From: Candidatus Magasanikbacteria bacterium GW2011_GWA2_56_11
GTDB lineage: Bacteria; Patescibacteriota; Patescibacteriia; Magasanikbacterales; UBA922
DNA length: 64,000 nucleotides
NCBI GenBank assembly: GCA_001004885.1
Contig: LCRX01000001.1
Span: 9,849-73,848 of the forward strand
Direction of reading: 5' to 3'
Shown: positions 9,246-49,588 of the stretch, piece after piece
Numbering within the stretch: the stretch's first letter is position 1
Layout: every line of letters begins with the position of its first letter
The notes under the pieces: generated by a model
Database searches by the model: none
Told to the model about the DNA's origin: nothing
What the model saw: the letters and a program-made list of their open reading frames with translations, nothing else
Position numbers and translations under genes: made by a program

Positions 9246-10238
9246 ATGAGTACGGATATATACCCTACTTACCGACCGCCTGAACCCGCCGTAAAGATTG
9301 AAGGGTCTTATTCTTTAGGACAATTCTTAACAGAAATTTCCCCGGAGGGCCGTAACATTTCTGCAGACCAGGAAGAGGGGTTACTTGGAGATTTAAGGAA
9401 ACGTGAGGCGGCGGTAGCCAACAAGGAATTATTGGAAGCATTAGAGGAATACGGTATTGACCCGCACTTGATTGAAGTTCGTCCCGATGGACGTATTCGT
9501 ATTGAAGTACGCAACCATTTTAGCAAAAAACATTTACCTGATGGGTACGCCTATAAAGGCGGGGCGGCCCGTGCTCTTCTTCTGCGCAGCCTGGGCAGTG
9601 TTTTGCAAGTTGAACCTCGCGATATTGATGTGGTCCGCCTAGCCCCCGAAGAACCGTATAAGGGCGCCGATACGGAGCTTGCCAAAGAGTTTATGCCTGA
9701 TGATTTCTCCGAAGGCTGGGGCGTAGAAATAATTAATTCAGAGGATCAATACTTTTCTACCCGTGATGTAACCGTCAACGAAGTTTTGGCCACCGATCAT
9801 GAAGTAATCGCTACCGAGCAATGCGTTATTGACGCCGTCCGTCATATTATTCGTTTAACCGAATTCGAACGTGGTTCAGACAAAGACATATATACTACTC
9901 CAGGTCCGAAAATGCTAGCGAAAATATTAAGGCTCTACTCTGAGTCTATCCATTATTTTGGTGAGGCGGAGATTGCTAATGTCGAAGGTTGGGAGTTTGA
10001 ACAAGCCTTTATTTCCCCATTTTGGCTGGCGTTGCAGCTTGATCATGCGTTTGAAAGGAGCCGTGAGATCGCCGCGCTCTATGTGGAGGAGCTCAAAAAA
10101 CATGGCCAGGTACCACCCCATATTGCTGGACCCGAGGAGGCAGCGATTTACCTGTCAAATTTGATCCGAGGCGAATTTTATTATCGGCACGCGCCCGTGG
10201 AACAGTTTGAATTGGAAGATGAGTGGATGGAAAATTGA
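9246..10238 (+). CDS. Polymerase-beta superfamily nucleotidyltransferase-like protein (PolyA_pol/CCA-adding head-domain-like motif); low GC (~45%)
   Basis: YKGGAARALLLRSLG...RDIDVV resembles the GGAVRDxLLG...DIDI motif of class II CCA/poly(A) polymerases; rest of the 330-aa protein unrecognised. Confidence 0.4.
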   Translation: MSTDIYPTYRPPEPAVKIEGSYSLGQFLTEISPEGRNISADQEEGLLGDLRKREAAVANKELLEALEEYGIDPHLIEVRPDGRIRIEVRNHFSKKHLPDGYAYKGGAARALLLRSLGSVLQVEPRDIDVVRLAPEEPYKGADTELAKEFMPDDFSEGWGVEIINSEDQYFSTRDVTVNEVLATDHEVIATEQCVIDAVRHIIRLTEFERGSDKDIYTTPGPKMLAKILRLYSESIHYFGEAEIANVEGWEFEQAFISPFWLALQLDHAFERSREIAALYVEELKKHGQVPPHIAGPEEAAIYLSNLIRGEFYYRHAPVEQFELEDEWMEN

Positions 10239-10395
10239 AGATAATTTGTTACTCGTAGACGACAAGGTTTTTGGCTGGAACACCCAGGAACCAGTTGTTC
10301 GACGGTGGATCGGGGCGTTTGTGTTTTTTGGGCTGGCGGTATCGATCGATAGGTTTTTCGGATGAAACAACGCTCCGGTCATAACGGTTACTTTT

Positions 10396-11205
10396 TTAAT
10401 CATCCCCTATATAGTGTTGTTTTTCCCAGGCGTCTCGTGTCATTACGCTAATGTTTTTGACCCCGCCTGCATCTAACATCTCGACGGCCATTTGCCTGTC
10501 CGACTCGCTACCGATCAAAACGGCAACACAATTTCCATCGAGAGGCGCGTCTGATATAGTCGGATACTGTAGCGTGGCGTCATAGCTGCCAAGCTCCATC
10601 ATTTTTGGCCCCATGACAAGGACGACTCCTTTGCCAGACGCACCTACCCCATGTGGGGTTAAACCCTTGTTAATAAGATCGCCATTTTTATCAAAAATAT
10701 CCCTCGTCATCATTACATCATCACTTGCTGACCACGCTGGCGGGTTAGCATCAGGGTTTCTTTTTTTAATTTCTGATCGCGATAAAAGTCCGCCGGCTTC
10801 AATGATTCTTTTAAAATTTTCAAAACTCGTTTGGTGATAATGAAATACTCTTTCGGGAGAATCAATGCGCCCCTTTGCGAATGAGCGTATTTCTGCCAAG
10901 ATAACGCTTGGCTCTACCCCTTTCTCTTTTGCTTTGTGGCGAATCATCCGGTCTTTGCCCCGATAACTTTCCATTTGGAGCCTGGCGAGGAATTGTTGTC
11001 TTTCGGCGGGGGTTAGGGCCGGTTTTTCTTTTTCAGGAACCAAAGCTACTGTTGAATCATAATTCGTATTACCATCCCACGTGGCGGCTTTCGATACGTC
11101 AAACGTACCATCTGCCCGCTGTGCCGCGCCAACAATATACTTTGGTTTTTCGGTGCATGCCCCGGTGGCATGATCCCTTCCACAAACTTTGCATCTTGAT
11201 TCCAT
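10396..11205 (-). CDS. Hypothetical protein with N-terminal CxxC...C zinc-ribbon-like motif (269 aa); low GC
   Basis: CKVCGRDHATGAC at N-terminus; convergent with the NTase-like gene. Confidence 0.35.
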   Translation of the reverse strand: MESRCKVCGRDHATGACTEKPKYIVGAAQRADGTFDVSKAATWDGNTNYDSTVALVPEKEKPALTPAERQQFLARLQMESYRGKDRMIRHKAKEKGVEPSVILAEIRSFAKGRIDSPERVFHYHQTSFENFKRIIEAGGLLSRSEIKKRNPDANPPAWSASDDVMMTRDIFDKNGDLINKGLTPHGVGASGKGVVLVMGPKMMELGSYDATLQYPTISDAPLDGNCVAVLIGSESDRQMAVEMLDAGGVKNISVMTRDAWEKQHYIGDD

Positions 11206-15369: not shown

Positions 15370-15972
15370 ATGCTTGAACACCTCTTTGGTTCAAAGACCC
15401 GCGTCAAGCTTCTTAGGATCTTGTTTCGTTTTCCGGACAGATCATTTTTTGTGCGCGAGATGGCTCGGACGCTGGAGGTGCAGATAAATGCCGTGCGCCG
15501 GGAAATCGAGATTCTGATGTCCGTGGGGCTCTTGCGCGAAGTGGAAGAGAAAAAAGGCCCGGACGAAGAGATACAGGCGGGGGCAATGCTCCGGAAGTAT
15601 TACCGCCTAGACAAGGAGGCCACGCTTTATCCGGAATTGCATGCCCTGCTGGTCAAAGAACAGCTTTTGGGAGAGGAACAGTTCGTGAAGGATCTACAGT
15701 CGAAAATAGGCACGCCGGAATTGTTGCTTTTGACCGGCCGTTTTACCCACGACGACCGGGCGCCGTCGGACATACTTATTGTCGGCAGCGATATTAAGGA
15801 CAAAATCGTGGCCCGGCTGGTGGCCGATTACGAAAAGGACTTTGGCTTTCCGATCCGGTACACGATTATGGACCACCAGGAGTTTACCGACCGGCGGTAC
15901 GTAATGGACAAGTTTCTGTTTTCGCTTTTCGAGGCAAACCATGTGAAAGCGGTTAATGTTTTCGATTTGTAA
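15370..15972 (+). CDS. Winged-helix transcriptional regulator-like protein (200 aa)
   Basis: LFGSKTRVKLLRILF...FFVREMARTLEVQINAVRREIEILMSVGLL resembles ArsR/MarR-type wHTH. Confidence 0.45.
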   Translation: MLEHLFGSKTRVKLLRILFRFPDRSFFVREMARTLEVQINAVRREIEILMSVGLLREVEEKKGPDEEIQAGAMLRKYYRLDKEATLYPELHALLVKEQLLGEEQFVKDLQSKIGTPELLLLTGRFTHDDRAPSDILIVGSDIKDKIVARLVADYEKDFGFPIRYTIMDHQEFTDRRYVMDKFLFSLFEANHVKAVNVFDL

Positions 15973-16074: not shown

Positions 16075-16461
16075 ATGTTTCTTCTCATCAACACGGCCGA
16101 AAAAGGCCAGGTAGAGCTGGCGCTGTTCGACGCCGAACGGCTTGAACAAAAAAAATATCCGGCCGAAAACCGGGATGTTTTGACCAGCGTGGATGATTTT
16201 TTATCTTCCCTGGGAACGAGTAAAGATAATATTCAGGGCGTAATGGTCGTCGTCGGCGCCGGCGGGTTTACGAGCACTCGCATCGCGACGACGATCGCGA
16301 ATGGTTTCGCCTACGCGCGGGCGATACCCGTCATGGGGATCAGCATTGACCAGGTGCCGGAGGCGCAAAAGCTTATTCCCGCTCTTCTTTTCCGGCCGCG
16401 GGGGCAGTATGTGTCGGCGACGTATAGCGGCGAGCCGAATATTGGGAAAATTGAAAAGTAA
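16075..16461 (+). CDS. tsaB: tRNA threonylcarbamoyladenosine biosynthesis protein TsaB (short form, 128 aa)
   Basis: MFLLINTAEKGQVELALF... and GAGGFTSTRIATTIANGFAYARAIPVMGIS match YeaZ/TsaB N-terminal domain. Confidence 0.7.
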   Translation: MFLLINTAEKGQVELALFDAERLEQKKYPAENRDVLTSVDDFLSSLGTSKDNIQGVMVVVGAGGFTSTRIATTIANGFAYARAIPVMGISIDQVPEAQKLIPALLFRPRGQYVSATYSGEPNIGKIEK

Positions 16462-16464
16462 ATT

Positions 16465-17274
16465 ATGGGTCAGGAACAGTGGACATCGTCTGTTGCCGCC
16501 GAGTGGGGGATATTCCTGCCGCCGGCGCGGCCGTCGTTATCCGAACTGGTTGTAATCGAGACGCGGCTTTTCGAAAGAAAAAAGAATAATCCCGGCCTGC
16601 GGGTGGGTATTCTCGGCTCCACTCCGGAGTACCGTGATTTGTGCCAGACTTACGCGATTGATTACCGGTGCGTTGATTACCGCCAGGATAATTTCGACAC
16701 TCTCGGCCGCCATCTTCTTCACCCGGACGGCGCGGAGCGACTGATCGTATCGGACTGGAGGAAAATGGAATTTCCTGGCCAGATTGACGTTTGGCTCGGC
16801 GACTTGGCCACGACCGTGACGCCGGTTTCCGATCACCGCGTGATGTTCGAGAATATCCGCGCGCATTCCCGGCCGGGAGCGGAAGTGATTTTGAAGGTGC
16901 CGCTCCGGGCAGATAATACTGTCCTGACGCACGAGCAGATATTCGCCTTGTACCGCGCGGAACGCGCGCACCTTAATCCATTTGCCGCGGTTTGGATAGA
17001 AGTACTCCTGGCCGACTATGATTTCGCCGCTGACACCATGTATTGTCCGACCAGCCGGGCGAGGCTGGAGGAATCGTGTCGGCAGGGGATTGTCTCCGAA
17101 TTTGAATTTGGCGAATTTACCAAACGGTGGGACGTTTTGGGCGACTTTAAAATGAATATTCCGCTCCGGTCCGAGTTTGTGGCGCGCTTGAGAGAATTCT
17201 TTCCCGTTATCAAATTTACTTCGGGACAGGACTGGTACCGGGAGCAGGTGCCAATAATTATTGGCCGCTACTGA
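16465..17274 (+). CDS. Class I SAM-dependent methyltransferase-like paralog 1 of 8 (TPMT-like?)
   Basis: N-term W..PPARPSLSE; motif I-like VGILGSTPEYRDL; motif II DVWLGD; 4 bp after tsaB stop. Confidence 0.55.
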   Translation: MGQEQWTSSVAAEWGIFLPPARPSLSELVVIETRLFERKKNNPGLRVGILGSTPEYRDLCQTYAIDYRCVDYRQDNFDTLGRHLLHPDGAERLIVSDWRKMEFPGQIDVWLGDLATTVTPVSDHRVMFENIRAHSRPGAEVILKVPLRADNTVLTHEQIFALYRAERAHLNPFAAVWIEVLLADYDFAADTMYCPTSRARLEESCRQGIVSEFEFGEFTKRWDVLGDFKMNIPLRSEFVARLREFFPVIKFTSGQDWYREQVPIIIGRY

Positions 17275-17308
17275 TTATTTTTGGCTAATTATAGGTCAAA
17301 AGATCCCT

Positions 17309-17344
17309 AAACGCCTTGACAAGAGGCGTTTTTTAGTGTATATT
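17309..17344 (+). promoter_or_regulatory. Terminator-like hairpin AAACGCCT/AGGCGTTT+T6 overlapping promoter TTGACA-N17-TATATT
   Basis: read directly; lies between paralog 1 and the high-GC PLP gene. Confidence 0.55.
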
Positions 17345-17420
17345 CGGTTATTCCTCGGCCAGACTCGGCGCGGGGTGCATGCGTTCCCGGCTGGCGTCGG
17401 GAAAGGAGGGGTTACAAACC

Positions 17421-18575
17421 ATGGTACGACAAAGCGTCGGGCAGTGGCTGGAAGCCACCTGCCCGAATTATGACACTGCTCTGTCCCCGGTGAGCCGGGA
17501 GGCCGAGCGCGAGCTGGCCGCCAGCTTCGACGTCAATGTCCCGGACATCCCGTACGCGCGGTACGGGAACACGATCTCGCTGGCCGTAGCCAAGAACTAC
17601 GCCGACCGAGTCGGCGCGACGGGGCTCGGCTTCGAGGCTCGCCTCACCAACTGCGGCATGGCCGCGATCCGGGCGGTGTTCGAGACCGGCATCCGGTGCT
17701 ACGCTGACCATCTCGCCGCCGGGAAGGTCCTGTACGGGCTCACCGACGAGCTCTTCAGGACGGCGCCGGATCTCTTCCGGACCACGAAGCCACACCGCTT
17801 CAACGCCGTCCGCGGCCTCGGACCGGACGTGTTCCCCACCGGGATGCGGTTCATGGTGTTCGTCGAGACGATCGGCAATGGGATCCCCATGCCGGTCTTC
17901 GTTCTCGAGAAGTTCCTGCGCGAGCACTGGAACAACCAGGAGGTCCTCGTCGTAGACGGGACTTTCACCACCTGCGCGCTCCTGAACCCGTTCGGGGTCT
18001 ACGACCGGGTCAGGAGGGATTTCGGTCCGGGCACCATCAAGCTGGTGTACGTGGAGTCGCTCTCCAAGTACTACCGGACCGGGGACATCGACCACGGCAC
18101 GGCCGGGATCATCGTCGCGCCCCAGGTGTTCATCGCCGAGTGCGACAAGGTCCTGGCCCACGGCTTCGGGATCCAGTACCCGCAGCTCGCGGACTTCCCG
18201 GTTGACCTCTTCGGGGCCTGCGCCGAGGTCATGCCGCGACTGTCGTTCAACGCCAAGGCCGCGGCCGAGTTCCTGCGCGGGCATCCGCGCGTGAGGAACG
18301 TGTGGTACCCGGGCTGGGACTCGGAGCTGGCGCGGGGCGCCGGCGGCGTCCTCTACCTCGAGGTCGAGACCGATGAGCGCGGCGCGGGCGAGCGGCTCTT
18401 CGAGCCGGTCATCCCGTTCCGGGCCTCGTTCGGACACGCCCAGTCGACGCACGTCGACTTCGGGCAGTTCAACCAGAGCCTGCCGCCTGGCACCATCCGC
18501 CTCGCGGTCGGCACCCGGGAGACCCCGAGCCAGGTCGTCGCGAAGCTCCAGACGGCCCTCGGGCCGCGCCTCTAG
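17421..18575 (+). CDS. Cys/Met-metabolism PLP-dependent enzyme family protein (cystathionine gamma-synthase/beta-lyase/methionine gamma-lyase-like); ~68% GC
   Basis: YVESLSKYY (PLP-lysine motif S.TKY-like) and C-terminal IRLAVGTRE resemble the IRLSVGIE signature; AAGGAGG RBS before ATG 17421. Confidence 0.6.
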   Translation: MVRQSVGQWLEATCPNYDTALSPVSREAERELAASFDVNVPDIPYARYGNTISLAVAKNYADRVGATGLGFEARLTNCGMAAIRAVFETGIRCYADHLAAGKVLYGLTDELFRTAPDLFRTTKPHRFNAVRGLGPDVFPTGMRFMVFVETIGNGIPMPVFVLEKFLREHWNNQEVLVVDGTFTTCALLNPFGVYDRVRRDFGPGTIKLVYVESLSKYYRTGDIDHGTAGIIVAPQVFIAECDKVLAHGFGIQYPQLADFPVDLFGACAEVMPRLSFNAKAAAEFLRGHPRVRNVWYPGWDSELARGAGGVLYLEVETDERGAGERLFEPVIPFRASFGHAQSTHVDFGQFNQSLPPGTIRLAVGTRETPSQVVAKLQTALGPRL

Positions 18576-18654
18576 TCCTCCCACCATGGTTCTCTACGGC
18601 GCCCACCGGCGCCGCCCGCCCAGTCATCCGACTGGGCTTCTACATTTATATAGG

Positions 18655-18684
18655 TTGCAAAAAAGCTCTCACTGTGGCTAAAAT
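18655..18684 (+). promoter_or_regulatory. Promoter TTGCAA-N17-TAAAAT upstream of paralog 2
   Basis: near-consensus -35/-10 with 17-nt spacer. Confidence 0.45.
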
Positions 18685-18701
18685 ACTCCTGTTGAGCTTG
18701 A

Positions 18702-19535
18702 ATGGCTATGGAAAATACAAACTGGCGGACAGATTTCGCCGAACGCTGGGTGAAGTATTGGACCCCGCCCGCTCGCCCGACGCCGGGTTCGCTGGCTTTT
18801 ATTCAGGAGAAGCTGGCTGCCTATCCGAAAAAAGGTCCCCGTGTCCTAGTTCTTGGATCAACGAGCGAGTTCCGGGATATGTTGTTTGACCGGGGAATCC
18901 GGCCGGCCGTCGTCGATTTTAGCCGCGACAACTACCGCATCCTTTCGCAAGCGATGCGGCACAAAGACGAGTACGAAGACAATGAGCGGTATGTCGAGGC
19001 CGACTGGTGCGCGATGGATTTGGGAGAAGAGTTCGACATTATTCTTGGTGATGCGGTTTTTAATATTGTTCCGAAAGAGTCCAACGGGCGGCTGCTCGGA
19101 AACATTAAGCGGCACTTGGCTCCGGAAGGAATATATATCGAGCGGGTGCATGTCTTCCCGGAAAAATATCGCGGGTTTGATATCGCGGCCGAAACCAAGA
19201 AGCGCCGCGAGGACATCGCGCGGCATTCTTTTTACTACGTATTTGGCACGCCTTCATACCTGGCGGCGATGGAAAAAGACAACGAACCGATACCGTTAAA
19301 GAAAGTATCGAGTCTCGTCGACGGCATATATGCCGAAGGACTTATCACGCCCGGCCAGTACGAAGAGTGGCGGCGGCTCGGCAAGCACCTGACCGATTTT
19401 GTTTTCTTTCTTCCGACCGAACAGTTCGCCCGCGACCGGCTGGCGGAATACTTTGCGATCGCGGAGGTGCATGTTGATTACGATTTTCCGTTTTACCCCG
19501 AGTTCTACCCCAATTTTGTGTTAAAAAAATTCTGA
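18702..19535 (+). CDS. SAM-methyltransferase-like paralog 2
   Basis: WTPPARPTPGS; VLVLGSTSEFRDML; VVDFSRDN (post-I); FDIILGDAVF (II); LAPEGIY (III). Confidence 0.55.
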   Translation: MAMENTNWRTDFAERWVKYWTPPARPTPGSLAFIQEKLAAYPKKGPRVLVLGSTSEFRDMLFDRGIRPAVVDFSRDNYRILSQAMRHKDEYEDNERYVEADWCAMDLGEEFDIILGDAVFNIVPKESNGRLLGNIKRHLAPEGIYIERVHVFPEKYRGFDIAAETKKRREDIARHSFYYVFGTPSYLAAMEKDNEPIPLKKVSSLVDGIYAEGLITPGQYEEWRRLGKHLTDFVFFLPTEQFARDRLAEYFAIAEVHVDYDFPFYPEFYPNFVLKKF

Positions 19536-19538
19536 TCT

Positions 19539-20390
19539 ATGGCCCCGAGCACCGCGGTTCCGGAAACCTATGGCACGCCCTGGAAAAAGATCGCGGCTAA
19601 TTGGGCGAAACTTGGCGATGGTAACCATCCATCGCCTCACGATTTGGCTATTTATAAAAAGTACATGGATCAGGCGATCGCAAATGTGGCCGAGCCGCGC
19701 GTCGTGGTGTTTGGAGCGACGCCGGAGCTTCGGGATATGCTCGCGCGCGAGAGAGGGATTGCGGTGACGGTTCTCGATCTTAATTTAGAGATGATCCGGG
19801 CCATGACCGAGCTTATGACCGAGGCGCCGGACCGGGAGACCTGGATCGAGGGGAACTGGCTGGAAGCCCGGCTACCCAGCAACACTTATCAGGTGGTGTT
19901 TGGCGATCAAATTCGGGGCAATGTCCCGTTTGCCCGGCAAGAGGATCTTTACCGCACGATCCACCGAATTCTCGCCCCGGGCGGCGCGCATGTTACCCGC
20001 GATACCAGTCATTTGCCGGAGACCCGTATCCATGATCCGGAAGAGCTAATTGCCAAGTTCGCGGCCGTCCCCTCGACGAAAGAGACGCTGACCGAGTTCA
20101 TGAATACACTTCTCTTTTTGACTCATCGAAATCCAGAGTCAACGACCGATCGGATGTTCTCTCTCCTTGAAAGACATCTGGACCAGCCTTTTATCCGCTC
20201 GTACTACGAACAGATTACGGAAATTCTACCGCGCGGCCAGTCGTGGAATATCGGCCGAAGCTGGGACGAGGTTAGCCGGTCGCTGCTGCGGTATTTTGAA
20301 ATTGCCGACAAGGAACAGGACGATACCGTTTTTGCCGATACCACTTACGTCTATAACTTAAAACCGCGCGCGATAAGTAACTTATCTTGA
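19539..20390 (+). CDS. SAM-methyltransferase-like paralog 3
   Basis: VVVFGATPELRDML; TVLDLNLEMIRAM; YQVVFGDQIRGNV; LAPGGAHV. Confidence 0.55.
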   Translation: MAPSTAVPETYGTPWKKIAANWAKLGDGNHPSPHDLAIYKKYMDQAIANVAEPRVVVFGATPELRDMLARERGIAVTVLDLNLEMIRAMTELMTEAPDRETWIEGNWLEARLPSNTYQVVFGDQIRGNVPFARQEDLYRTIHRILAPGGAHVTRDTSHLPETRIHDPEELIAKFAAVPSTKETLTEFMNTLLFLTHRNPESTTDRMFSLLERHLDQPFIRSYYEQITEILPRGQSWNIGRSWDEVSRSLLRYFEIADKEQDDTVFADTTYVYNLKPRAISNLS

Positions 20391-20393
20391 TTT

Positions 20394-21203
20394 ATGGCCA
20401 TCGCCAACTGGCAACCGACCAAAGCAGAATTTTGGAAAAATCTTCCCGCCCCGGCGCGGCCGTGGCCGAGCGAAGTCGCATGGTTTGAAAAGTATATTCT
20501 CGAGAAGAAGGCCAACGGGCCGGTGGACGTCCTTATTTTAGGTTCGACTGTCGAATTTCGCTCTTTGTGCCACCAGCACGGCGCGCGCGTGCACATAGTG
20601 GATTTTTCCGATAAGTTCTATCGGATACTGTCCGAACAGCCGATGGAATATCGGGGAGAAGAGGCTTTTTACGAACAGGATTGGCGGACAATGGAGCTTG
20701 GTCGGCAGTTTGATCTAATTTTCGGAGACTGGGTGCCGGGGGTGCTCCACACCGTCGATTACGATGTATTTTTCAAACGCATCGTCGCGCATCTCAAAGA
20801 CGACGGATTATTTATCGCCCGCGAGTGCCTTCGCCCCGATCGCACGGTCGTCGATTTGGCCGCCGTGGTCAAGAAACACAACGCCGAATACGCCGACAAG
20901 TACTCTTTTTACGAAAGCTCAATGCAGTATGTTTACGGGTACCGCCCCGACCCGGTCACGGCGATGTGGGATATTCCCGCGGCCCAGTCGGCGCTCGATA
21001 AAGTCCACGCGGACGGTCTTCTCAAAGACAGCGACTATGATTTTTTTACCCGGGCGCTCGCGGTCGAGAAAAGTCCGGCTTCGATCATGGTGGCGGAGGA
21101 TTTTGACCGGGAGGTACAAGGGTACTTTGTTATCCAGGCAAAGCATTTCGGCAACGAGCCGTCGCATAATTGGTACCCTGTTTATGTGTTGAAGAAAAAA
21201 TGA
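20394..21203 (+). CDS. SAM-methyltransferase-like paralog 4
   Basis: LPAPARPWPSE; VLILGSTVEFRSLC; HIVDFSDKF; FDLIFGDWVPGVLH; LKDDGLF. Confidence 0.55.
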   Translation: MAIANWQPTKAEFWKNLPAPARPWPSEVAWFEKYILEKKANGPVDVLILGSTVEFRSLCHQHGARVHIVDFSDKFYRILSEQPMEYRGEEAFYEQDWRTMELGRQFDLIFGDWVPGVLHTVDYDVFFKRIVAHLKDDGLFIARECLRPDRTVVDLAAVVKKHNAEYADKYSFYESSMQYVYGYRPDPVTAMWDIPAAQSALDKVHADGLLKDSDYDFFTRALAVEKSPASIMVAEDFDREVQGYFVIQAKHFGNEPSHNWYPVYVLKKK

Positions 21204-22033
21204 ATATGCCGACCGCACTTTCGAGCACTAAAACCAATTGGAATTACGCCGAAATTTGGGACCAATTCCCGGTGCCGGCTAGGCCGACTCCGTCGGAGAT
21301 TAAACTTTTGGAGAGCGAATTAAAACGTCGCCTGGCCAAAAACAGCCGTCTAAAGCTGCTGATCTTGGGATCAACGATTGAGTACCGTTCGTTAGCCCGG
21401 CATTTGGGCGTTAAACCATACGTGGCGGATTTTTCCCGCGCCAATTACGAGGCCCTGACCGCCTTTTCGCGGGAAAAATTTCCCGGGGAGCATTTCATCG
21501 AAATCAACTGGCTGGATATTGCCGCCGACGGCACGTATGACGTCATAGTCGGACACCGGGTCATGAACGTTGTTAAACATACGGATCTGGTCCGCATGTT
21601 TGCTGTTATGCACCGGGCGCTCAAGCCTGAAGGCGTCTATTTTTGCCGAGGCAATGTCTGGCTGCCCAAAGACAAAGATCGGCTGGCCGAATTGGTGAAA
21701 GCCTACGCTTTTAAGAAACGCCGGCCGCACCCGCTGTTCACGTATTTGGAAGTCGCGTTGTATTTCCATTCGGCCGATCGCCGTGGGTATGTTAATTATC
21801 CGCTGGCTCGCCGCCTGGCGAAAGAGTGGCTGAAAGACGGTCGGATATCCCGCGCTGATTACGAACGGACGACCCCGCTCATTTCCATGCCCAAGGGCAC
21901 CAAGTTTCGCGGGTTAATTCGTCGCGAGGAGATAGTCGCTGCCTATACGGCCGCGGGTTTCAAGCAAGTTTCCTGGCTGTTCACCAGGGAAGATTATTGC
22001 CGGAATATGCCGATTATCAAGTTAAGCAAATAA
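21200..22033 (+). CDS. SAM-methyltransferase-like paralog 5 (ATGA start/stop overlap with paralog 4)
   Basis: FPVPARPTPSE; LLILGSTIEYRSLA; YVADFSRAN; YDVIVGHRVMNVV; LKPEGVYF. Confidence 0.55.
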   Translation: MNMPTALSSTKTNWNYAEIWDQFPVPARPTPSEIKLLESELKRRLAKNSRLKLLILGSTIEYRSLARHLGVKPYVADFSRANYEALTAFSREKFPGEHFIEINWLDIAADGTYDVIVGHRVMNVVKHTDLVRMFAVMHRALKPEGVYFCRGNVWLPKDKDRLAELVKAYAFKKRRPHPLFTYLEVALYFHSADRRGYVNYPLARRLAKEWLKDGRISRADYERTTPLISMPKGTKFRGLIRREEIVAAYTAAGFKQVSWLFTREDYCRNMPIIKLSK

Positions 22034-22036
22034 ATT

Positions 22037-22894
22037 ATGCCCGCAAAGGAAACGTTTGCCACGCCTTGGAAAGACCTCGCGAACCGTTGGGAAGCGTATT
22101 ACACGCCGCCGGGCCGGCCGTCGCCTGAAGATTGCCAGCTCTACGCTAAATACGTCCGTCGGGCCCTGGGAAAAAAGAAGTCTGGCCGGGCGCTCGTATT
22201 AGGCGCCACACCCGAGATCCGTAATTTGCTCCATAAACTGCCGGTCGAAGTAACGTCGCTCGACATCAATTTGGAAATGATACTCGCCATGAATCGCTTT
22301 GTCCCGCAGTGCGAGAAGGATATTTTGGTCCGCGGCAGCTGGGTGGATAATCCGCTCAAGAGTGGCTATTTTGACGCGGTTATCGGGGATTATTCGTGGT
22401 CGAATGTTCCCCGACGCCAGTGGACTCAGTTTAATGAGACGGTCGCGAGGCTTCTTACGCCAGCCGGGCTTTACGTCCATCGCGTTCATTTGGTGCCGGA
22501 CGGCTGGCAACGCGAATCGGCGTTGCCGATAGTTCAAGATTATGCCAGTCGGCCATACAGCCGGCAGCTGGCATTTGAATTGTTTTTTAAACTGCTCACT
22601 AATACTTACAACAAACGCGATCGCAGCGTATCGATGCGGCGAATTTGGGATGATCTGGCTTCATTTTGGCGCGCCGGGAAATTTGTGAGGGGGGCGTCAA
22701 TTCCAGGCGCCGGCCGGCTGTTGGCTGACCTGCATAAATTTTGGGGTACGACTGACAAAACGTGGCAGATTGGATATAAGAGCGATCTCCTGGCTGACAT
22801 CGGTCCCTATTTTCAACTCGGCGAAAGCGTCAAGGCAAACGATTATGACGATGCCGGCTGCGTCGAGATGTGGATATGCCGGAAAAGGCCGTAA
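22037..22894 (+). CDS. SAM-methyltransferase-like paralog 6
   Basis: YTPPGRPSPED; ALVLGATPEIRNLL; VTSLDINLEMILAM; FDAVIGDYSWSNV; LTPAGLYV. Confidence 0.55.
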   Translation: MPAKETFATPWKDLANRWEAYYTPPGRPSPEDCQLYAKYVRRALGKKKSGRALVLGATPEIRNLLHKLPVEVTSLDINLEMILAMNRFVPQCEKDILVRGSWVDNPLKSGYFDAVIGDYSWSNVPRRQWTQFNETVARLLTPAGLYVHRVHLVPDGWQRESALPIVQDYASRPYSRQLAFELFFKLLTNTYNKRDRSVSMRRIWDDLASFWRAGKFVRGASIPGAGRLLADLHKFWGTTDKTWQIGYKSDLLADIGPYFQLGESVKANDYDDAGCVEMWICRKRP

Positions 22895-22903
22895 ACTTTG
22901 CTT

Positions 22904-23770
22904 ATGGCTGGTTACATTGACCAAAAAAAAGACGAATGGAGCGGACAAGTCGCAGCCGCCCGGACAAAGGACCGGTCGCAGTACCCGGGCGGGCCGTCCG
23001 CGAGTCCGGCGATTTTGGCGACCTACGCGCGCCTGATCAACTCGGCTATCGCCGGCAAACAGGCATTCACGGCCTGCGTCCTCGGGGCAACGCCGGAACT
23101 CAGGGACATGGTTCTCGAACGCGGCGGCAATTTGACGACGCTCGACATCAGCGACGAGATGATAGCCAAATGCGCGCCGCTCATGCGCCACCAAGAAAAT
23201 ACTCGCGAAACCGTGCGGATCGCGAGCTGGCTTGATGCTTCGCTTCCGGCCGCCGCGTTCGATTTGGTCCTCGGCGACGGTGCGTCGAACAATATTCCGC
23301 CGGACAAACAAACCGAGTTTTTTGCCAACCTTCGCCGGCTGCTTCGTCCGGGCGGGACTTTGGTTCTGCGCGAGGGCGTTATTCATCCGGACCGCCCGGT
23401 CCGGACAGTGGCCGAGATCAGCCGGGAATTTGACGAAGGCGGCGCGCACTGGTTCGATACCTTTTACGACCTTTATTTGTACAGCGAACTTACCCCTCGC
23501 TACCGCGACCCGGAGACGAGCCGGACCAATCTGGGCGCCTTTTGGGAAGAAATCCGGCAAGCCCGTGAATCCGGCGGTCTTGGCCAGGCCGCTTTCGAGG
23601 CCATGTGGTGGTTCCGCGGTAAAATTATCCATACCATTTATCTGAAACCGGAGTTGGAGAAGTTGATGGCCGGTCATTTTTTCCTTTCTCCGGTGGCTCC
23701 CGATCCCGATCATCTGCGGATGACAAAGGATAGCTGGTTATTTTTCGCGGGCCGGCCGCGTAATCCATAA
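22904..23770 (+). CDS. SAM-methyltransferase-like paralog 7 (ATG 22904; TTG 22898 also possible)
   Basis: ACVLGATPELRDMV; TTLDISDEMIAKC; FDLVLGDGASNNIP; LRPGGTLVL. Confidence 0.55.
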   Translation: MAGYIDQKKDEWSGQVAAARTKDRSQYPGGPSASPAILATYARLINSAIAGKQAFTACVLGATPELRDMVLERGGNLTTLDISDEMIAKCAPLMRHQENTRETVRIASWLDASLPAAAFDLVLGDGASNNIPPDKQTEFFANLRRLLRPGGTLVLREGVIHPDRPVRTVAEISREFDEGGAHWFDTFYDLYLYSELTPRYRDPETSRTNLGAFWEEIRQARESGGLGQAAFEAMWWFRGKIIHTIYLKPELEKLMAGHFFLSPVAPDPDHLRMTKDSWLFFAGRPRNP

Positions 23771-24621
23771 TGTCAACCGCTATGAGTCAACCGCAAAGCT
23801 GGACGCCGATCGCGGACAATCGGGCGCGTCCCGGGAATCGTGTGCCGCCGTTCGCGCCTTCGAGCGCCGAGCTTGGCGTATATGCTAAGTACGTCGGAAG
23901 AGTCCGGGAAAACCCCAGTCTGCCGCCGCGGGCGCTCATCTTGGGGTCGACTCCGGAGCTGCGTGATCTCACGATAAGCGCCGGGCTCGAAGCGCACGCC
24001 CTGGATATCAGCCCCGAGATGCTGGTTAAATTTTCGGCTCTCATGGAGCACGCCGGAAGCGAGCTCGATAAACGCCATCTCGGCGACTGGCGGGCGACCG
24101 AATTTCCCGCCGGTTACTTTGGTTTAGTTTTCGGCGACGGATCGCTAATGAGTCTCGCCAGCCGCGAAGACAATGAAACTGTTGTCGGAAGGTGCGCGCG
24201 AAGTCTCTCGCCTGGGGGTTATCTGGTGGCGCGCAACAGTTGCTTTGTTTCGGATTACGACGGTTATCGCGATGCGTCTGCCCTGGTCGGGGATTACCGC
24301 GCGGGCAAATTGACCTGGAATGATCTTTTTATGGAGCTAAGGTTTTTCGTTTTTAAAGATCAGGCGTACAATCCGGCAAACTTCCAGTACGACGCCGGTG
24401 TGACTTTCCGGCGCATAGACGAGCTTCAGGCCGCCGGTCTTTTGCCCGACGGGGAGTACAAGCGCATCAATGAATTCAGGAATTCCATAATCAATACCGT
24501 TTACCCGGAGGCGGAATTCGTCTCCATGGTTGGACGCCATGGTTTCCGACTCGAGGAAACTTTTCACGACGGACCGGAGTTGTTTTTCCGCCATTTTTTT
24601 ATGCTGGCGTTTGCCCGGTAG
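23770..24621 (+). CDS. SAM-methyltransferase-like paralog 8 (TAATG overlap with paralog 7)
   Basis: ALILGSTPELRDLT; HALDISPEMLVKF; FGLVFGDGSLMSL; LSPGGYLVA. Confidence 0.55.
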   Translation: MSTAMSQPQSWTPIADNRARPGNRVPPFAPSSAELGVYAKYVGRVRENPSLPPRALILGSTPELRDLTISAGLEAHALDISPEMLVKFSALMEHAGSELDKRHLGDWRATEFPAGYFGLVFGDGSLMSLASREDNETVVGRCARSLSPGGYLVARNSCFVSDYDGYRDASALVGDYRAGKLTWNDLFMELRFFVFKDQAYNPANFQYDAGVTFRRIDELQAAGLLPDGEYKRINEFRNSIINTVYPEAEFVSMVGRHGFRLEETFHDGPELFFRHFFMLAFAR

Positions 24622-24636
24622 GGCCGGCTTATTTCT

Positions 24637-26184
24637 TTGCCTATGGACAGGCAGAAAAAATTAACCGTGGCTACGACCAACTACGAAGTCTCGATTTGGC
24701 CCCTGTGCATGCTGGTCGAGATGCTTTCCTCTGATTTTCATAAGCTCGCCGGAGAAAATTACGGCGGGATGAAGATCCAGGAGTGGCAGAACCGGACGAA
24801 CCGCGTTGCGGTCGATCCCACGGCGCATGAGCGGATTACCCGGCTCATGCTGAAAAAAGCCGGAGAGCGTCCGGCCTGGGCCCGAGGGATACTCAAAAGG
24901 ATCCCCCGCGAGTGCCGGACGCTGCTGGCATTCACCACCGGCGTGGCCCGGTCTGATTTGACTAAAAAAAGCAACCGCGAGCTTTATGGATTGTACCGCG
25001 AGTACGAAAAACGGTTTCGGCAGATGTACCTCTATTCCTGGTTTCCGAATTCTTTGGAGGGGCCAAACAACCTTTTGACGAAAAAACTGGGGGACTATCT
25101 TGGCCGCAAATTGAAAGCTCTTGATAAGCCGGAACAGGCGAGCTCATATCTGAGCGTGCTGCTTACTCCTACGCGTTTGAGTACCAGGCAAAAAGAAGAA
25201 CGCGATCTGTTACGCCTTGTCGGACGAATTCAAAGTTCGCGGGATGCCAAGCGACTGTTTATCAGGGGAACAGACACAATCGTAGCCCGTCTTGGCGTCC
25301 TTGATCCGGTCCTGCGGCGGGCGATCCGGCGTCATCACCGTGTTTATGCTTGGATGCCGTACAATTACGATGGCCCGGCGTGGGGGATTGAGTATTTCTT
25401 GGATCGTATTCGCAGTCTGATTATTCAAAAAAATTCTGTGGACAAACTCATGAGCGCTCTTGAGGCCGAACGGCGAGGACTCATGGCTCTCCAGCGTCGG
25501 ATGTCCCGGGAGTTGAAACTAAACGAAGATACGGAGTATCGTTTTTGGATTGGCCTCGCGCGCCAGGCGATGTATCTAAAGGATTACCGTAAGGATGCCC
25601 TTTTTAAGTCCTATTTTCACATGGACAGGCTCATCCGTGAGATCGCCCTTAGATTGTACCTGTCGCCAATTCAAGTAAAACACATTTTGCCCGAAGAGAT
25701 GGAAGAGATTTTGGAAAGCGGAGAGGTAGACGCGCATCAACTCAACGAGCGTCTGGCATATTCGGTGCTTGTGCGTGATAGCACAGGCCATCGGTTATAT
25801 ACCGGAGAACAGGCGCGCACGGTTATGAAACGATACGTGAAAGAAATCCCGACGCTGCATTTGTCCGAGCTTCGCGGCGAGGTTGCCTACTTTGGCAAAG
25901 CGCATGGCGAGGTCTGTATAGTGTTTACGACGGCCGATATGGCCAAGATGAAGCCCGGGGATGTACTGGTATCGGTCGCGACCAATCCCAACTTGCTTCC
26001 GGCCATGCGCCTCGCTGGCGCAATCGTTACTGACAGGGGCGGAATTACGAGCCACGCCGCTGTGATCGCGCGGGAATTGAAGATACCCTGTGTTACCGGA
26101 ACGAAGACAGCCACGCAGGTCTTTAAAGACGGCGATCTCGTAGAAGTCGATGCCGAAGCCGGTATTGTCCGGCGGCTCGGTTAG
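24637..26184 (+). CDS. Protein with unrecognised ~400-aa N-terminal region and C-terminal PEP-utilizing enzyme mobile (phospho-His swivel) domain
   Basis: C-terminus ...VTDRGGITSHAAVIARELKIPCVTGTKTATQ... matches PEP-utilizers mobile-domain TSHAA His motif; no ATP-grasp/PPDK N-domain recognised. Confidence 0.6.
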   Translation: MPMDRQKKLTVATTNYEVSIWPLCMLVEMLSSDFHKLAGENYGGMKIQEWQNRTNRVAVDPTAHERITRLMLKKAGERPAWARGILKRIPRECRTLLAFTTGVARSDLTKKSNRELYGLYREYEKRFRQMYLYSWFPNSLEGPNNLLTKKLGDYLGRKLKALDKPEQASSYLSVLLTPTRLSTRQKEERDLLRLVGRIQSSRDAKRLFIRGTDTIVARLGVLDPVLRRAIRRHHRVYAWMPYNYDGPAWGIEYFLDRIRSLIIQKNSVDKLMSALEAERRGLMALQRRMSRELKLNEDTEYRFWIGLARQAMYLKDYRKDALFKSYFHMDRLIREIALRLYLSPIQVKHILPEEMEEILESGEVDAHQLNERLAYSVLVRDSTGHRLYTGEQARTVMKRYVKEIPTLHLSELRGEVAYFGKAHGEVCIVFTTADMAKMKPGDVLVSVATNPNLLPAMRLAGAIVTDRGGITSHAAVIARELKIPCVTGTKTATQVFKDGDLVEVDAEAGIVRRLG

Positions 26185-26300
26185 TGTCCATCCGCTGTCA
26201 AAGCAGATTATTGAAGCGTATCTCTCCTCAAGACCGGACTCTTCCGGTATTCAGGATGGATTGCCGGCACAGAGTCGTGGAACTCGATGTACCGGCTTGG

Positions 26301-26858
26301 TCAGGGGTTGAAGACCTCGACAGCGGTTGTCGAGTCCGAGATTAGTTCGGTCGTCTGCGGATCGTGTATGAAGAGCACGGTCCCGGGCGCGAGCCAGCTC
26401 CGGTCTACCGGCTGCTCGACCCAGTCCCGGACGCCTTTCTGGATCGCGGTCCGGGAGGCGATTACGAGCAGCGCCTGCTCGCGGCTAGTTTGCCGCGAGC
26501 GCTCATTGCGTCTGCTGTCGAGCTCGCTGATGCGGTCGCCGACAACCTGGCCGGAGCTCTTGGCCGCGAGTTCACTCTGCGGGCCAAAAGTGGTTACCTC
26601 GATGCCCTGGGCGACCAGGGTGCCGGTCAAGATATCGGCCGCCAGCAGGTAGCGCGGCAGAGCGCCGTGAGCCAGGCAGACAGCGCGGACGCCGCGTTTC
26701 CGGCAGAGTTTGGCCACCAGCGCGGCAGAGCGCAGCAGACGCCGCCGCAGTCCGATACAGACAAAAAATTCCATCTGGTCTTCTTTCCGGGTCATCTTGA
26801 CCCCACAACGTTGGTCCCCTTGCTCCCTGCTTGGGAACCCATAACCGCGCCCGGACAC
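26301..26858 (-). CDS. Hypothetical protein; possible CX5R phosphatase-like loop (FFVCIGLRRRL); start uncertain
   Basis: minus-strand ORF has more protein-like composition than overlapping plus ORF 26364-27101; weak CX5R match only. Confidence 0.25.
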   Translation of the reverse strand: MSGRGYGFPSREQGDQRCGVKMTRKEDQMEFFVCIGLRRRLLRSAALVAKLCRKRGVRAVCLAHGALPRYLLAADILTGTLVAQGIEVTTFGPQSELAAKSSGQVVGDRISELDSRRNERSRQTSREQALLVIASRTAIQKGVRDWVEQPVDRSWLAPGTVLFIHDPQTTELISDSTTAVEVFNP

Positions 26859-27008
26859 TGGGTGAGATTATGGATTTTCAAGCTATTGAAGCCGGCGGCG
26901 TATAAAGAACAGGGAGCAGAAGATTGTATCTTCTTACCTTGCTTTTGTCAAGCGGCAACGGTATACTGGCTCATATTAGAACTCATAGCGAGTCTCTCCT
27001 TTCGCCTC

Positions 27009-27088
27009 AAACATAGACTGGTTTTCACGGCACCAAAACTCGCTCTTACAGGCTCAGACATTGGTGCCGCGAAAACCAGTCTATGTTT
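27009..27088. repeat. 28-bp imperfect inverted repeat (1 mismatch) with 23-nt spacer
   Basis: AAACATAGACTGGTTTTCACGGCACCAA ... TTGGTGCCGCGAAAACCAGTCTATGTTT read directly, ~50 bp upstream of acyP. Confidence 0.8.
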
Positions 27089-27139
27089 CGGCTCGGCTTA
27101 GGATAGAATTGCTAATAATTCACTACCAGTTCTTACTTA

Positions 27140-48910: not shown

Positions 48911-48973
48911 GTCAACCATTTTAGTATATAACGGACCAAGTGTTACCTGACTCGTAGGGGTGACACTAAGGCA

Positions 48974-49061
48974 GTCCTAACTTCATACACCAAACGGCTC
49001 GGGTTAAAAGATGGCTCATTTAACCATCTTTTTTCGTACCCTTTGGCCGGGTTTGAACTGC
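48974..49061. repeat. Intergenic repeat family copy A (GTCCTAAC...CCAAACGGCTCGGGTTAAAAGATGG..CCATCTTTTTT..CGTACCCTTTGGCCGGGTTTGAACTGC)
   Basis: shares ~88 bp with copies at 50056 and 51839 including terminator-like hairpin. Confidence 0.8.
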
Positions 49062-49104
49062 AGTAGATCATCTGTTATTATAAACCCAGCCATAAATTTA
49101 GCGT

Positions 49105-49575: not shown

Positions 49576-49588
49576 CCCAAAGTAGTAT

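Follow-up and report, generated by a model that had tools for sequence, protein, structure and literature searches.

Eight related, methyltransferase-like genes lie close together in the 64-kb stretch of DNA analyzed here (hereafter, the window), which raises the question of what such a set is for and whether it belongs to a larger system. Comparison with other genomes indicates that the genes in the window very probably belong to a recurrent type of cluster, found in CPR bacteria, that has not been described before. Literature searches found no description of this cluster, in agreement with the original prediction, which had recognized no known arrangement. The recurrence of the same enzyme set in many ultra-small relatives of this tiny-genome groundwater bacterium points to an undescribed small-molecule modification system.

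Organization of the locus

Eight mutually homologous ORFs of 269–290 aa, all on the + strand as originally predicted, occupy positions 16465–24621, and a family HMM matches these eight and no other ORF of the window. Subfamily A comprises P1 (16465–17274; 269 aa), which represents the most widely conserved type, P2 (18702–19535; 277 aa), P4 (20394–21203; 269 aa), and P5 (21200–22033; 277 aa from the ATG, or 287 aa from a TTG at 21170). Subfamily B includes P3 (19539–20390; 283 aa), P6 (22037–22894; 285 aa), P7 (22898–23770; 290 aa, TTG start), and P8 (23770–24621; 283 aa). A half-size TsaB-like gene (16075–16461; 128 aa) precedes P1 by 3 nt, and a gene for a rifampin-phosphotransferase-like protein, termed PEPu (24637–26184; 515 aa), follows P8 after 15 nt; both lie on the + strand.

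Tight packing is limited to P2–P8, where spacers range from -4 to +3 nt. The predicted ATGA and TAATG overlaps were found at the P4/P5 and P7/P8 junctions, respectively, and the other tight junctions have 3-nt spacers. Contrary to what had been assumed, the array is not continuous. Gaps of -4 to +4 nt hold at six paralog junctions; at the seventh, P1/P2, 1,427 nt accommodate an overlooked gene for a 398-aa PLP enzyme of the Cys/Met-metabolism family (17379–18575, + strand), a terminator, and two promoter-like sites. Pattern scans placed these signals, all on the + strand, in the 104-nt and 126-nt spacers around the PLP gene. An intrinsic-terminator-like hairpin (17309–17331) overlaps a sigma-70-like promoter (TTGACA-17-TATATT, 11/12 positions; 17316–17344), and a further promoter-like site (TTGCAA-18-TAAAAT; 18655–18684) stands ahead of the P2–P8/PEPu block. 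Transcription is probably split into the TsaB-like gene with P1, the PLP gene, and P2–P8 with PEPu, with likely translational coupling inside the last unit.

The TsaB-like gene marks a conserved flank and lies outside the system. The predicted neighbor is present, yet it covers only the N-terminal half of TsaB (TIGR03725, 47 bits against a cut-off of 69, profile positions 2–96 of 212; PF00814, 28 bits). It holds the same position in loci L001 and L012 from two other Magasanikbacteria. Between this gene and an acylphosphatase or GT2 gene lies a slot whose contents vary among the three related genomes: one copy and a toxin-antitoxin pair in L012, four copies and a hydrolase in L001, and eight copies with the PLP gene and PEPu in the window.

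Sequence, motifs, and fold of the paralogs

The paralogs are 21–36% identical to one another (blastp, E 1e-4 to 6e-33) and share a Rossmann-type methyltransferase core carrying the motifs listed in the original prediction. The invariant residues (W6, A11, G51, T53, E55, R57, D71, W98, G112, and F246 in P1 numbering) all fall in cofactor-side motifs. The core retains the acidic ribose-binding residue D71, a D/N-W past strand 3, and a G-D past strand 4, and a conserved P-x-R-P-S segment lies N-terminal to it. A conserved loop, G-[SA]-T-P-E-x-R-[DSN], stands in place of GxGxG, with a near-invariant Glu replacing the third glycine of motif I. This variant is real and family-wide: of 242 family sequences, about 87% carry G-[SAG]-T-x-E-x-R, and the remainder are mostly one position off. 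Since the canonical glycine loop is lost, we infer SAM binding only from the remaining motifs. Conservation drops sharply outside the core. Residues 46–145 have a mean pairwise column identity of 0.29, compared with 0.14 for the C-terminal insert (146–245), a stretch of about 100 residues that forms the acceptor lid and is almost unconserved among the paralogs.

Pfam recognizes only half of the set as methyltransferases. Gathering scores are exceeded by P7, which gives the most canonical methyltransferase signal of the eight (Methyltransf_11, 37.3 bits; Methyltransf_25, 36.6; Methyltransf_12, 32.8), P8 (Methyltransf_25, 28.5; Methyltransf_11, 28.4), P3 (Methyltransf_25, 28.4; Methyltransf_11, 22.1), and P6 (Methyltransf_11, 22.6, with Methyltransf_25 not passed). 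P1, P2, P4, and P5 fall below them; P2 has Methyltransf_25/11 matches under the cut-off, and the Pfam search with P1 returned no match. Nevertheless, the AF2 model of P1 (pLDDT 95.4) displays the predicted class I methyltransferase fold, and the top sequence and structure matches of the paralogs are all methyltransferases. Structural neighbors are small-molecule enzymes (TM-scores up to 0.61), TmtA among them. A profile of the N-terminus and motif I found nothing in the PDB. Assignment to the class I SAM-methyltransferase fold and family can be made with great confidence.

The closest known proteins are small-molecule methyltransferases of the Methyltransf_11/25 type: PH0226 (1ve3), phosphoethanolamine N-methyltransferases, glycine sarcosine methyltransferase, PmtA, ToxA/XrdM, BelI/CysG, and the uncharacterized 3iv6. 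The paralogs differ from them in the variant loop, the P-x-R-P-S segment, the arrangement of their genes in arrays of up to ten or more divergent copies, and the occurrence of a six-domain fusion.

Family size and age of the duplications

At E thresholds of 1e-3, 1e-10, and 1e-30, the family contains 3,164, 1,817, and 713 clusters, respectively (defined at 50% identity), and members at the strictest threshold come mostly from CPR bacteria. P1 has 48 orthologue-like sequences (best 57–61% identity). Orthologues occur for P2 in L001 (46%), for P3 in L001, L012, and L014 (46–52%), for P4 in L004, L090, and L014 (72–73%), and for P8 in L015 and L032 (45–48%). P6 has relatives at 38–49%, and a close orthologue of P5 is absent from the sample. 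The duplications appear old and maintained, as had been predicted, because orthologues of P1–P4 in other Magasanikbacteria keep their order and 46–73% identity, whereas array-mates share only 21–36%. Array content is genome-dependent and combines reshuffled old subfamilies with some recent tandem duplicates at 60–64% identity.

Natural fusions also exist: P0074 (1704 aa) joins six domains, whereas P0075 and P0076 have two apiece. The gene for P0074 adjoins IF-2B-family, RuBisCO-large, and Glycos_transf_3 (phosphorylase-type) genes. Members of a second, single-copy branch are found in biosynthetic-looking clusters with YcaO, nitroreductase, and PaaK-like ligase genes.

Partner enzymes and recurrence of the cluster

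The PLP enzyme belongs to PF01053 (47 bits), like methionine gamma-lyase, cystathionine gamma-synthase/lyase, and O-acetylhomoserine sulfhydrylase, but it reaches at most 45 bits against every named NCBIfam equivalog, whose cut-offs range from 440 to 790. Its best solved relative is methionine gamma-lyase (E 1.5e-7). In that alignment, Y-G-L-T stands opposite the Y-G-C-T of the lyase, so the Cys is missing. We take S-L-S-K-Y-Y to occupy the place of the Schiff-base lysine motif of the family and T-I-R-L-A-V-G, presumably, that of the carboxylate-binding arginine motif. Unlike the named enzymes, it belongs to a small CPR-specific clade linked to methyltransferase arrays, with relatives at 47–48% identity encoded beside methyltransferase-like genes. 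The gene is compositionally foreign, with a GC3 of 91.7% against 61–68% in its neighbors.

PEPu combines a helical substrate-binding-type domain with a phosphohistidine swivel domain. Its closest known relatives are rifampin phosphotransferase (RPH) and the PEP-synthase-like PRK06241 group, including PigC, RedH, and HapC. In contrast to RPH, it lacks the N-terminal ATP-grasp domain, measures about 500 rather than about 865 aa, occurs in tandem arrays of paralogs, and accompanies methyltransferase arrays. No ATP-grasp domain is encoded nearby or within the window. PEPu and one stray methyltransferase-like gene also occur in DPANN archaea.

A survey of 80 non-redundant loci identified 25 with multiple copies (2–10). 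The PLP gene, present in 13 of these 25, is the most consistent partner, followed by PEPu (9/25) and the hydrolase (5/25), and 18 of the 25 contain at least one of the three. Adjacency to tsaB is restricted to Magasanikbacteria; Falkowbacteria, Kerfeldbacteria, and the other lineages lack it, and flanks in other lineages are unrelated. The neighbor survey revealed no further conserved neighbor family, and neither MetK nor SAH hydrolase genes accompany the arrays. Abbreviating methyltransferase-like genes as MT, layouts include PLP-MTx3-PEPu (L020), MT-PLP-MTx2-PEPu (L032), PLP-MTx8 (L021), MTx10 (L028), and MTx2-PLP-MTx2-PEPux5 with interspersed toxin-antitoxin genes (L090). The general form is a Cys/Met-family PLP gene, one to at least ten divergent paralogs, and a gene for an RPH-like substrate-binding and His-swivel protein, sometimes with an esterase-like alpha/beta hydrolase. 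The cluster is accessory and variable in character, because slot contents differ, arrays are reshuffled, the GC3 of the PLP gene is foreign, and toxin-antitoxin genes are interspersed (L090).

Two single loci hold additional genes. An M19 dipeptidase gene adjoins MT-MT-PLP in L022, and the L018 array embeds a bona fide MTA phosphorylase (MTAP; TIGR01694, 306 bits against a cut-off of 275).

Proposed function

On balance, the paralogs are probably SAM-dependent small-molecule methyltransferases with distinct acceptors. With somewhat more reserve, we favor a variable battery of such enzymes that works alongside a phosphotransferase and a PLP enzyme of the C-S/gamma-lyase type. The common core of each paralog would bind SAM, and its own lid would set a different acceptor or a different position for methylation. 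The PLP enzyme may target a sulfur amino-acid moiety, either freeing thiols from S-conjugates for S-methylation or removing SAH-derived homocysteine. The S-conjugate idea is weakened by the fact that CPR bacteria are not known to make glutathione-type thiols. The phospho-histidine of PEPu, charged by a putative donor, would phosphorylate hydroxyl groups of bound small molecules. The whole would make up an accessory battery for group transfer that is rapidly reshuffled and combines methylation, phosphorylation, C-S/gamma cleavage, and ester hydrolysis. Its targets would be small molecules, either scavenged or toxic, and it would not be a core biosynthetic pathway. Detoxification or conditioning as its purpose is a tentative suggestion. 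The missing ATP-grasp domain speaks against the phosphotransferase role, and both the biosynthetic-looking surroundings of the second branch and the missing link to MetK or SAH hydrolase genes speak against the battery.

The gliotoxin (GliJ, GliI, TmtA) and lincomycin (LmbF, LmbG) pathways follow a dipeptidase, C-S lyase, and S-methyltransferase logic. The apparent resemblance would be one of logic only: a PLP lyase-family enzyme lies beside SAM methyltransferases, with a dipeptidase in L022 alone. The PLP family differs from GliI/LmbF, a thiol-conjugating enzyme is missing, and methyltransferases are many instead of one.

Alternative explanations

The battery has to be weighed against a biosynthetic tailoring line, in which the paralogs act in turn on the same scaffold, such as an amino-acid-derived compound made by the PLP enzyme. 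The paralogous methyltransferases of cobalamin synthesis and the two-domain phosphoethanolamine methyltransferases work in this manner. The natural six- and two-domain fusions argue that the paralogs act jointly, sharing a substrate or a complex, which a pathway explains more readily than a set of independent detoxifying enzymes. The tight coupling of P2–P8, the usual first place of the PLP gene, the multi-step phosphoethanolamine N-methyltransferases among the closest solved relatives, and the single-copy branch in clusters typical of natural-product pathways point the same way. However, copy number runs from 1 to at least 10 (1, 4, and 8 in the same slot of three related genomes), subfamily sets are genome-dependent with order conserved only in close relatives, and PLP-MTn-PEPu loci lack a scaffold-forming enzyme (NRPS, PKS, precursor peptide, or YcaO), which leaves the tailoring line rather unlikely. 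Non-methyl SAM chemistry that releases methylthioadenosine (aminocarboxypropyl/aminopropyl transfer or SAM lyase-type cyclization), with the four-carbon amino-acid unit processed by the gamma-family PLP enzyme, is improbable. It would account for the motif I Glu, which resembles the acidic residue in the loop of spermidine synthases, for the MTAP gene in L018, for weak Spermine_synth matches in P0075/P0076 and weak polyamine aminopropyltransferase matches in the PDB profile search, and for P0074 neighbors that could serve MTA/nucleoside salvage. Yet MTAP occurs in only 1 of about 25 arrays, none of the eight window paralogs matches PF01564 while all their top matches are methyltransferases, they lack the N-terminal domain found in spermidine synthases, and the near-invariant Arg two residues past the Glu may serve to bind the SAM carboxylate.

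Thiol/halide methyltransferases of the TPMT type, S-methylating thiols made by a PLP C-S lyase, are quite improbable, and the suggested kinship with TPMT found no support. Catalytically dead binding or scaffold proteins that have lost the glycine-rich loop would explain the missing GxGxG, Pfam matches that start after motif I, four sub-threshold paralogs, and a weak match to Anamorsin_N, a non-catalytic methyltransferase-like domain. This reading is very unlikely, since the replacement loop and cofactor-side residues are kept in hundreds of clusters and in all eight paralogs, which argues for a maintained ligand site, and the intact ORFs with orthologues at 46–73% identity argue for purifying selection. 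Least plausible, with hardly any weight left, is the proposed RNA-modification module of tRNA/rRNA methyltransferases tied to the t6A subunit TsaB and co-transcribed with it. P1 does start directly past the TsaB-like gene, with an equivalent just downstream in two other Magasanikbacteria, but a terminator and a new promoter follow P1, other lineages lack the adjacency, and the TsaB-like gene merely flanks a variable slot. The paralogs carry no RNA-binding domain, their structural neighbors act on small molecules, and the genes found with them encode a PLP lyase-type enzyme and an RPH-like protein.

Organization of the locus

The region opens with the genes for ribosomal proteins L10 and L7/L12, followed by a 747-aa gene on the - strand. 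The + strand then carries a winged-helix protein of 200 aa (15370-15972), a TsaB-like protein of 128 aa (16075-16461) and, 3 nt further on, P1 (16465-17274; identical to UY92_C0001G0023 of Candidatus Magasanikbacteria bacterium GW2011_GWA2_5x, a groundwater CPR bacterium), the first of eight mutually homologous, methyltransferase-like paralogs (P1-P8). P2 to P8 follow at 18702-24621 on the same strand, separated by successive spacers of 3, 3, -4, 3, 3 and -1 nt. The window holds no family members besides these eight. P8 is trailed at 15 nt by PEPu (24637-26184, +), a PEP-utilizers swivel-domain protein of 515 aa. A 955-nt gap without a recognisable gene (26185-27139) lies 3' of PEPu, and beyond it stand, in this order, acylphosphatase, GT2 glycosyltransferase, DUF4012 and MreB genes.

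The original prediction described a continuous eight-gene array, with an RNA-modification module including tsaB as one of several suggested roles. The eight ORFs, their lengths and their motifs are as described, but the array is interrupted. P1 and P2 lie 1.4 kb apart, and their interval encodes a 398-aa Cys/Met-family PLP enzyme (17379-18575, +). On the 5' side of this gene a terminator-like hairpin overlaps a sigma-70-like promoter scoring 11/12 (17309-17344), and on its 3' side lies another promoter-like site (18655-18684). These signals make co-transcription of the whole block with tsaB unlikely. Neither the RNA-modification proposal nor a conserved link to the t6A (TsaB-TsaD-TsaE) module is supported: the tsaB linkage is confined to Magasanikbacteria and absent from the other loci, and the TsaB-like protein is half-size and scores under the TIGR03725 cut-off.

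A methyltransferase fold with an altered motif I

Pairwise identities among the paralogs run from 21 to 36%, and their blastp matches (E 1e-4 to 6e-33) are far stronger than chance would give. They divide into subfamily A (P1, P2, P4, P5), with D-[FY]-S-x-x-N-[FY] after strand 2, and subfamily B (P3, P6, P7, P8), with the classical L-D-[IL]-[SN]-x-E-M at the same place. The duplications had been read as old, and the array indeed lacks long DNA repeats. Recent amplification or gene conversion was considered and rejected, as no DNA repeat exceeds 37 nt and those present are only 62-89% identical.

The fold places the proteins in the class I SAM-dependent methyltransferase superfamily, with its seven-stranded Rossmann-like architecture. 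The AlphaFold model of P1, built from a 70-sequence alignment, reaches a pLDDT of 95.4 and a pTM of 0.92 and has a helical N-terminus. Foldseek searches with this model agree on the methyltransferase fold at TM-scores of at most 0.61, and P1 thus has no close solved relative. When the eight paralogs are searched as one profile, the region between strands 2 and 5 aligns with PH0226, phosphoethanolamine N-methyltransferases and ToxA/XrdM, and a profile restricted to the N-terminus and motif I has no match in the PDB.

The predicted cofactor-binding positions are conserved in part. GxGxG is missing after strand 1; every paralog, like about 87% of the 242 relatives compared, has a loop of the form G-[SA]-T-[PSVI]-E-x-R there. 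In general the replacement can be written G-[SA]-T-P-E-x-R-[DSN], and across the relatives Thr and Arg are its steadiest positions. D71 (P1 numbering), the acidic residue closing strand 2 that would contact the ribose hydroxyls, is invariant in the paralogs, as is W98, which would lie on the adenine side after strand 3 and is preceded by D, N or S. After strand 4, G112 is invariant and D113 occurs in 7/8 paralogs.

Database models capture these proteins only at the level of the superfamily. Pfam returns clan-level methyltransferase matches that all start past motif I: P3, P6, P7 and P8 pass the gathering score of at least one Methyltransf_11/25 model, P2, P4 and P5 stay below it, and P1 has no match. 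Nothing in NCBIfam comes close to its cut-off (the top model, CpaM, gives 34 bits against 180). A likeness to the TPMT loop had been suspected; an assignment to TPMT in particular is not supported, and none of the paralogs matches PF05724 at E<=0.1. Mean column identity between paralogs is 0.29 in the core versus 0.14 in the C-terminal insert (residues 146-245). Judged from the alignment, a conserved core with a variable insert would be the pattern expected of one cofactor and many acceptors.

Membership in a known anti-phage defence system was rejected, since PADLOC yields only weak, generic methyltransferase-core matches to mad2 (E 3e-11 to 1e-3) and no match for PLP or PEPu.

The partner enzymes

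The 398-aa gene encodes a divergent member of PF01053 (47.2 bits against a cut-off of 27). Its S-L-S-K-Y-Y segment stands at what we take to be the place of the family's Schiff-base lysine motif; in an alignment with methionine gamma-lyase, the region falls opposite S-A-T-K-Y-I of the lyase. A segment presumably corresponding to the family's carboxylate-binding arginine motif is also visible. The protein belongs to none of the named subfamilies MGL, CGS, CGL, CBL and OAHS, its best NCBIfam score being 45 bits against cut-offs of 440-790; nine array-linked PLP homologues likewise fall far under the named NCBIfam cut-offs. With 67.7% GC and 91.7% GC3, the gene has the window's highest values, and its GC3 against 61-68% in the neighbours suggests recent acquisition. 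Bracketed by the terminator/promoter and the second promoter-like site, it looks like a recent horizontal insertion, yet its nearest relatives, at 47-48% identity, are CPR proteins that adjoin methyltransferase-like genes in the same type of cluster.

PEPu resembles rifampin phosphotransferase (RPH). It carries a phosphohistidine swivel domain (PF00391, 84.6 bits), whose catalytic H473 is invariant in 81 homologues, together with a central substrate-binding domain of the RIF-binding type. The N-terminal ATP-grasp domain (PPDK_N) is absent, as PF01326 gives no match and the model opens directly with the helical domain. A search for a stand-alone ATP-grasp partner found no ATP-grasp homologue, either in the window or across the related loci. 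CPR bacteria and DPANN archaea commonly encode PEPu-type proteins of about 500 aa; some are fused to HTH domains and a few are full-length with PPDK_N. Matches of the rph-like kind in CPR genomes have been noted (PMC8651080).

Tandem arrays of four to five ATP-grasp-less RPH-like paralogs were also observed in the collected loci L016 (11898-17818), L090 (10001-19759) and L009 (1884-6471 and 11707-13284). The L090 array is interspersed with PhdYeFM and PIN toxin-antitoxin genes, and that of L016 is preceded by a phosphate acetyltransferase.

Recurrence of the cluster in other genomes

Three related genomes share common flanks, namely the 747-aa, winged-helix and TsaB-like genes on one side and acylphosphatase or GT2, DUF4012 and MreB on the other. 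In L012 the slot between them is filled by a single paralog and a toxin-antitoxin pair, in L001 by a hydrolase and orthologues of P1, P2, P3 and P4, and in the window by the eight paralogs with PLP and PEPu.

A wider survey covered 91 loci scanned with purpose-built HMMs. The same genes recur in several orders (MT denoting a family gene): PLP, three MT and PEPu in L020; MT, PLP, two MT and PEPu in L032; MT, PEPu, PLP and two MT in L015; PLP and five MT in L017 and L025; and PLP with eight MT, reaching the contig end, in L021. Ten MT genes span the whole 8.8-kb contig of L028. L016 combines PLP, Pta and four PEPu genes with eight MT-like genes, of which one is a two-domain fusion. L090 has two MT, PLP, two MT and then five PEPu genes among toxin-antitoxin genes. 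Across 25 non-redundant multi-copy loci, PLP lies within 3 kb in 13, PEPu in nine and a hydrolase in five, with at least one partner in 18/25. No other neighbour family recurs near the arrays of the collected loci. Occasional extras are a bona fide MTA phosphorylase (MTAP; L018), an M19 dipeptidase (L022) and a hexapeptide acyltransferase with Pta (L016).

Most array members have their closest counterparts in the arrays of other genomes (45-73% identity) and resemble the paralogs beside them less (25-35%). Recent tandem duplicates are few (60-64% identity), and the subfamily set varies from genome to genome.

The array hydrolase matches lipase/esterase nucleophile elbows only and no NCBIfam family. 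An analogy to MetX/MetY/MetW, which join an alpha/beta hydrolase, a PLP enzyme and a methyltransferase-like protein, was rejected; among the matches listed for the paralogs at E<=0.1, none is to the MetW family.

Two species-representative genomes labelled 'uncultured Gammaproteobacteria', L008 (OZ246405.1) and L006, contain a CPR-type locus. The family and hydrolase genes of L008, on a 1.23-Mb chromosome, have coordinates and scores identical to those of L001. Both labels look wrong.

Family breadth, fusions and a second branch

A profile search of 1.84 billion cluster representatives returned 713 matches at E<=1e-30 and 1,817 at E<=1e-10, nearly all of 260-330 aa and aligned over their full length. 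Named sources are CPR bacteria (Magasanikbacteria, Falkowbacteria, Kerfeldbacteria and the Parcubacteria group) plus one Woesearchaeota copy. The latter, a P1 homologue (L002), was set aside as uninformative because its N-terminus is replaced and its neighbours are unrelated. Conservation is highest for the P1 type, which counts 48 orthologue-like sequences (the closest at 57-61% identity); P1-type genes mostly lie directly 3' of an esterase-like alpha/beta hydrolase.

Fused members also occur. P0074 (1704 aa) comprises six domains with 23-33% mutual identity, one subfamily-A-like and then five subfamily-B-like, and P0075 and P0076 have two fused domains each. The six-domain 1704-aa protein, at 1125-6239 of L011, adjoins beta-CASP/metallo-beta-lactamase, IF-2B-family, RuBisCO-large and phosphorylase-type Glycos_transf_3 genes.

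A second branch of the family is single-copy and 300-330 aa long and retains the LGSTPELRD loop in a different conserved cluster (L031-L085; for example, L085 6541-15063 and L034 3342-11939). Its neighbours include one to four PaaK/F390-synthetase-like ligases (18 loci), YcaO (12 loci), a nitroreductase-family protein (nine loci) and a DegT aminotransferase (seven loci), along with a thioesterase, PGA_cap and a secreted beta-propeller protein.

All these proteins fall within a known superfamily. Neither Pfam nor NCBIfam has a name for the family itself, for its variant motif I, for the arrays and fusions, for the RPH-like partner that lacks ATP-grasp or for the PLP-(MT)n-PEPu cluster, and the searchable literature yielded no description of the paralog arrays or of the PLP-(MT)n-PEPu arrangement. 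Defined here are a large unannotated enzyme family with the simple signature L-G-[SA]-T-P-E-x-R-D, a conserved PLP-(MT)n-PEPu cluster, and a shortened, arrayed form of the rifampin-phosphotransferase family.

Proposed function and alternatives

With fold, conservation pattern and linkage established, we infer cofactor, substrates and purpose as follows. Under the best-supported reading, the paralogs would be SAM-dependent small-molecule methyltransferases, each equipped with a separate acceptor pocket. The PLP enzyme would handle a sulfur amino-acid moiety, either by releasing thiols from S-conjugates or by disposing of SAH-derived homocysteine. PEPu would phosphorylate bound small molecules via phospho-His. 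Several features favour an accessory group-transfer battery over a core pathway: copy number varies within a fixed slot, the content is reshuffled, the PLP gene is foreign, and toxin-antitoxin genes are interspersed. The strongest competing reading is a serial tailoring pathway, for which the natural fusions speak, as does the single-copy branch in its YcaO, nitroreductase, DegT and PaaK-like ligase clusters.

A third reading treats the family as a CPR-centred branch of the fold, with stray DPANN copies, that uses SAM for non-methyl chemistry and releases MTA. Aminocarboxypropyl or alkyl transfer or SAM cleavage would be examples, working with a dedicated gamma-family PLP enzyme and the ATP-grasp-less phosphohistidine protein. 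In its favour are the acidic position within G-[SA]-T-P-E-x-R and the MTAP locus, the only one of those surveyed; overall, we regard it as improbable. Membership among the spermidine synthases or other aminopropyltransferases is not supported. The window paralogs do not match PF01564, P0075 and P0076 do so weakly, and the P1 model has a helical N-terminus instead of the N-terminal beta-hairpin domain. Linkage to the SAM cycle was looked for by BLAST with approximate MetK and SAH hydrolase queries, which gave no homologue in the window or the 91 loci. If MTA-releasing chemistry did take place, it would constitute a new SAM-consuming pathway in organisms credited with hardly any metabolism.

Genomes of CPR bacteria and DPANN archaea measure about 1 Mb and encode scant recognisable metabolism. 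This genome gives about 10 kb to eight divergent methyltransferase-type genes and two partner enzymes, and relatives maintain as many as ten or more copies, or six domains fused in one protein. A battery acting on host-derived or toxic small molecules would bear on how episymbionts cope chemically with their hosts, and a pathway would imply some unknown poly-methylated metabolite. Under either reading, proteins of about 270 aa that can be cloned and have high-confidence models are at hand for biochemical screens.

Further features of the segment

The gene-less gap at 26185-27139 contains ORFs of 185 and 245 aa with no Pfam match. A near-consensus sigma-70-like promoter on its - strand (TTGACA-17-TACAAT, 11/12; 26951-26923) is aimed leftwards into the gap. 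The + strand of the gap carries a long, very stable hairpin at 26975-27105 (RNA fold -57.3 kcal/mol, z -8.4), and immediately 5' of it stands a promoter-like TTGCTT-17-TATACT. The hairpin matches no Rfam family and has a homologue just 3' of the methyltransferase array in L014 (3867-3995); the two copies differ by compensatory substitutions at 8/30 base pairs. It could be an unannotated small RNA.

The segment is mosaic, given its compositional islands. A single ORF at 3637-5370 reaches 85% GC3, two ORFs at 9246-11205 have 47% GC, and a low-GC island at 48323-50056 (three ORFs, 34-42% GC) lies beside the tRNA-Val and tRNA-Thr genes.
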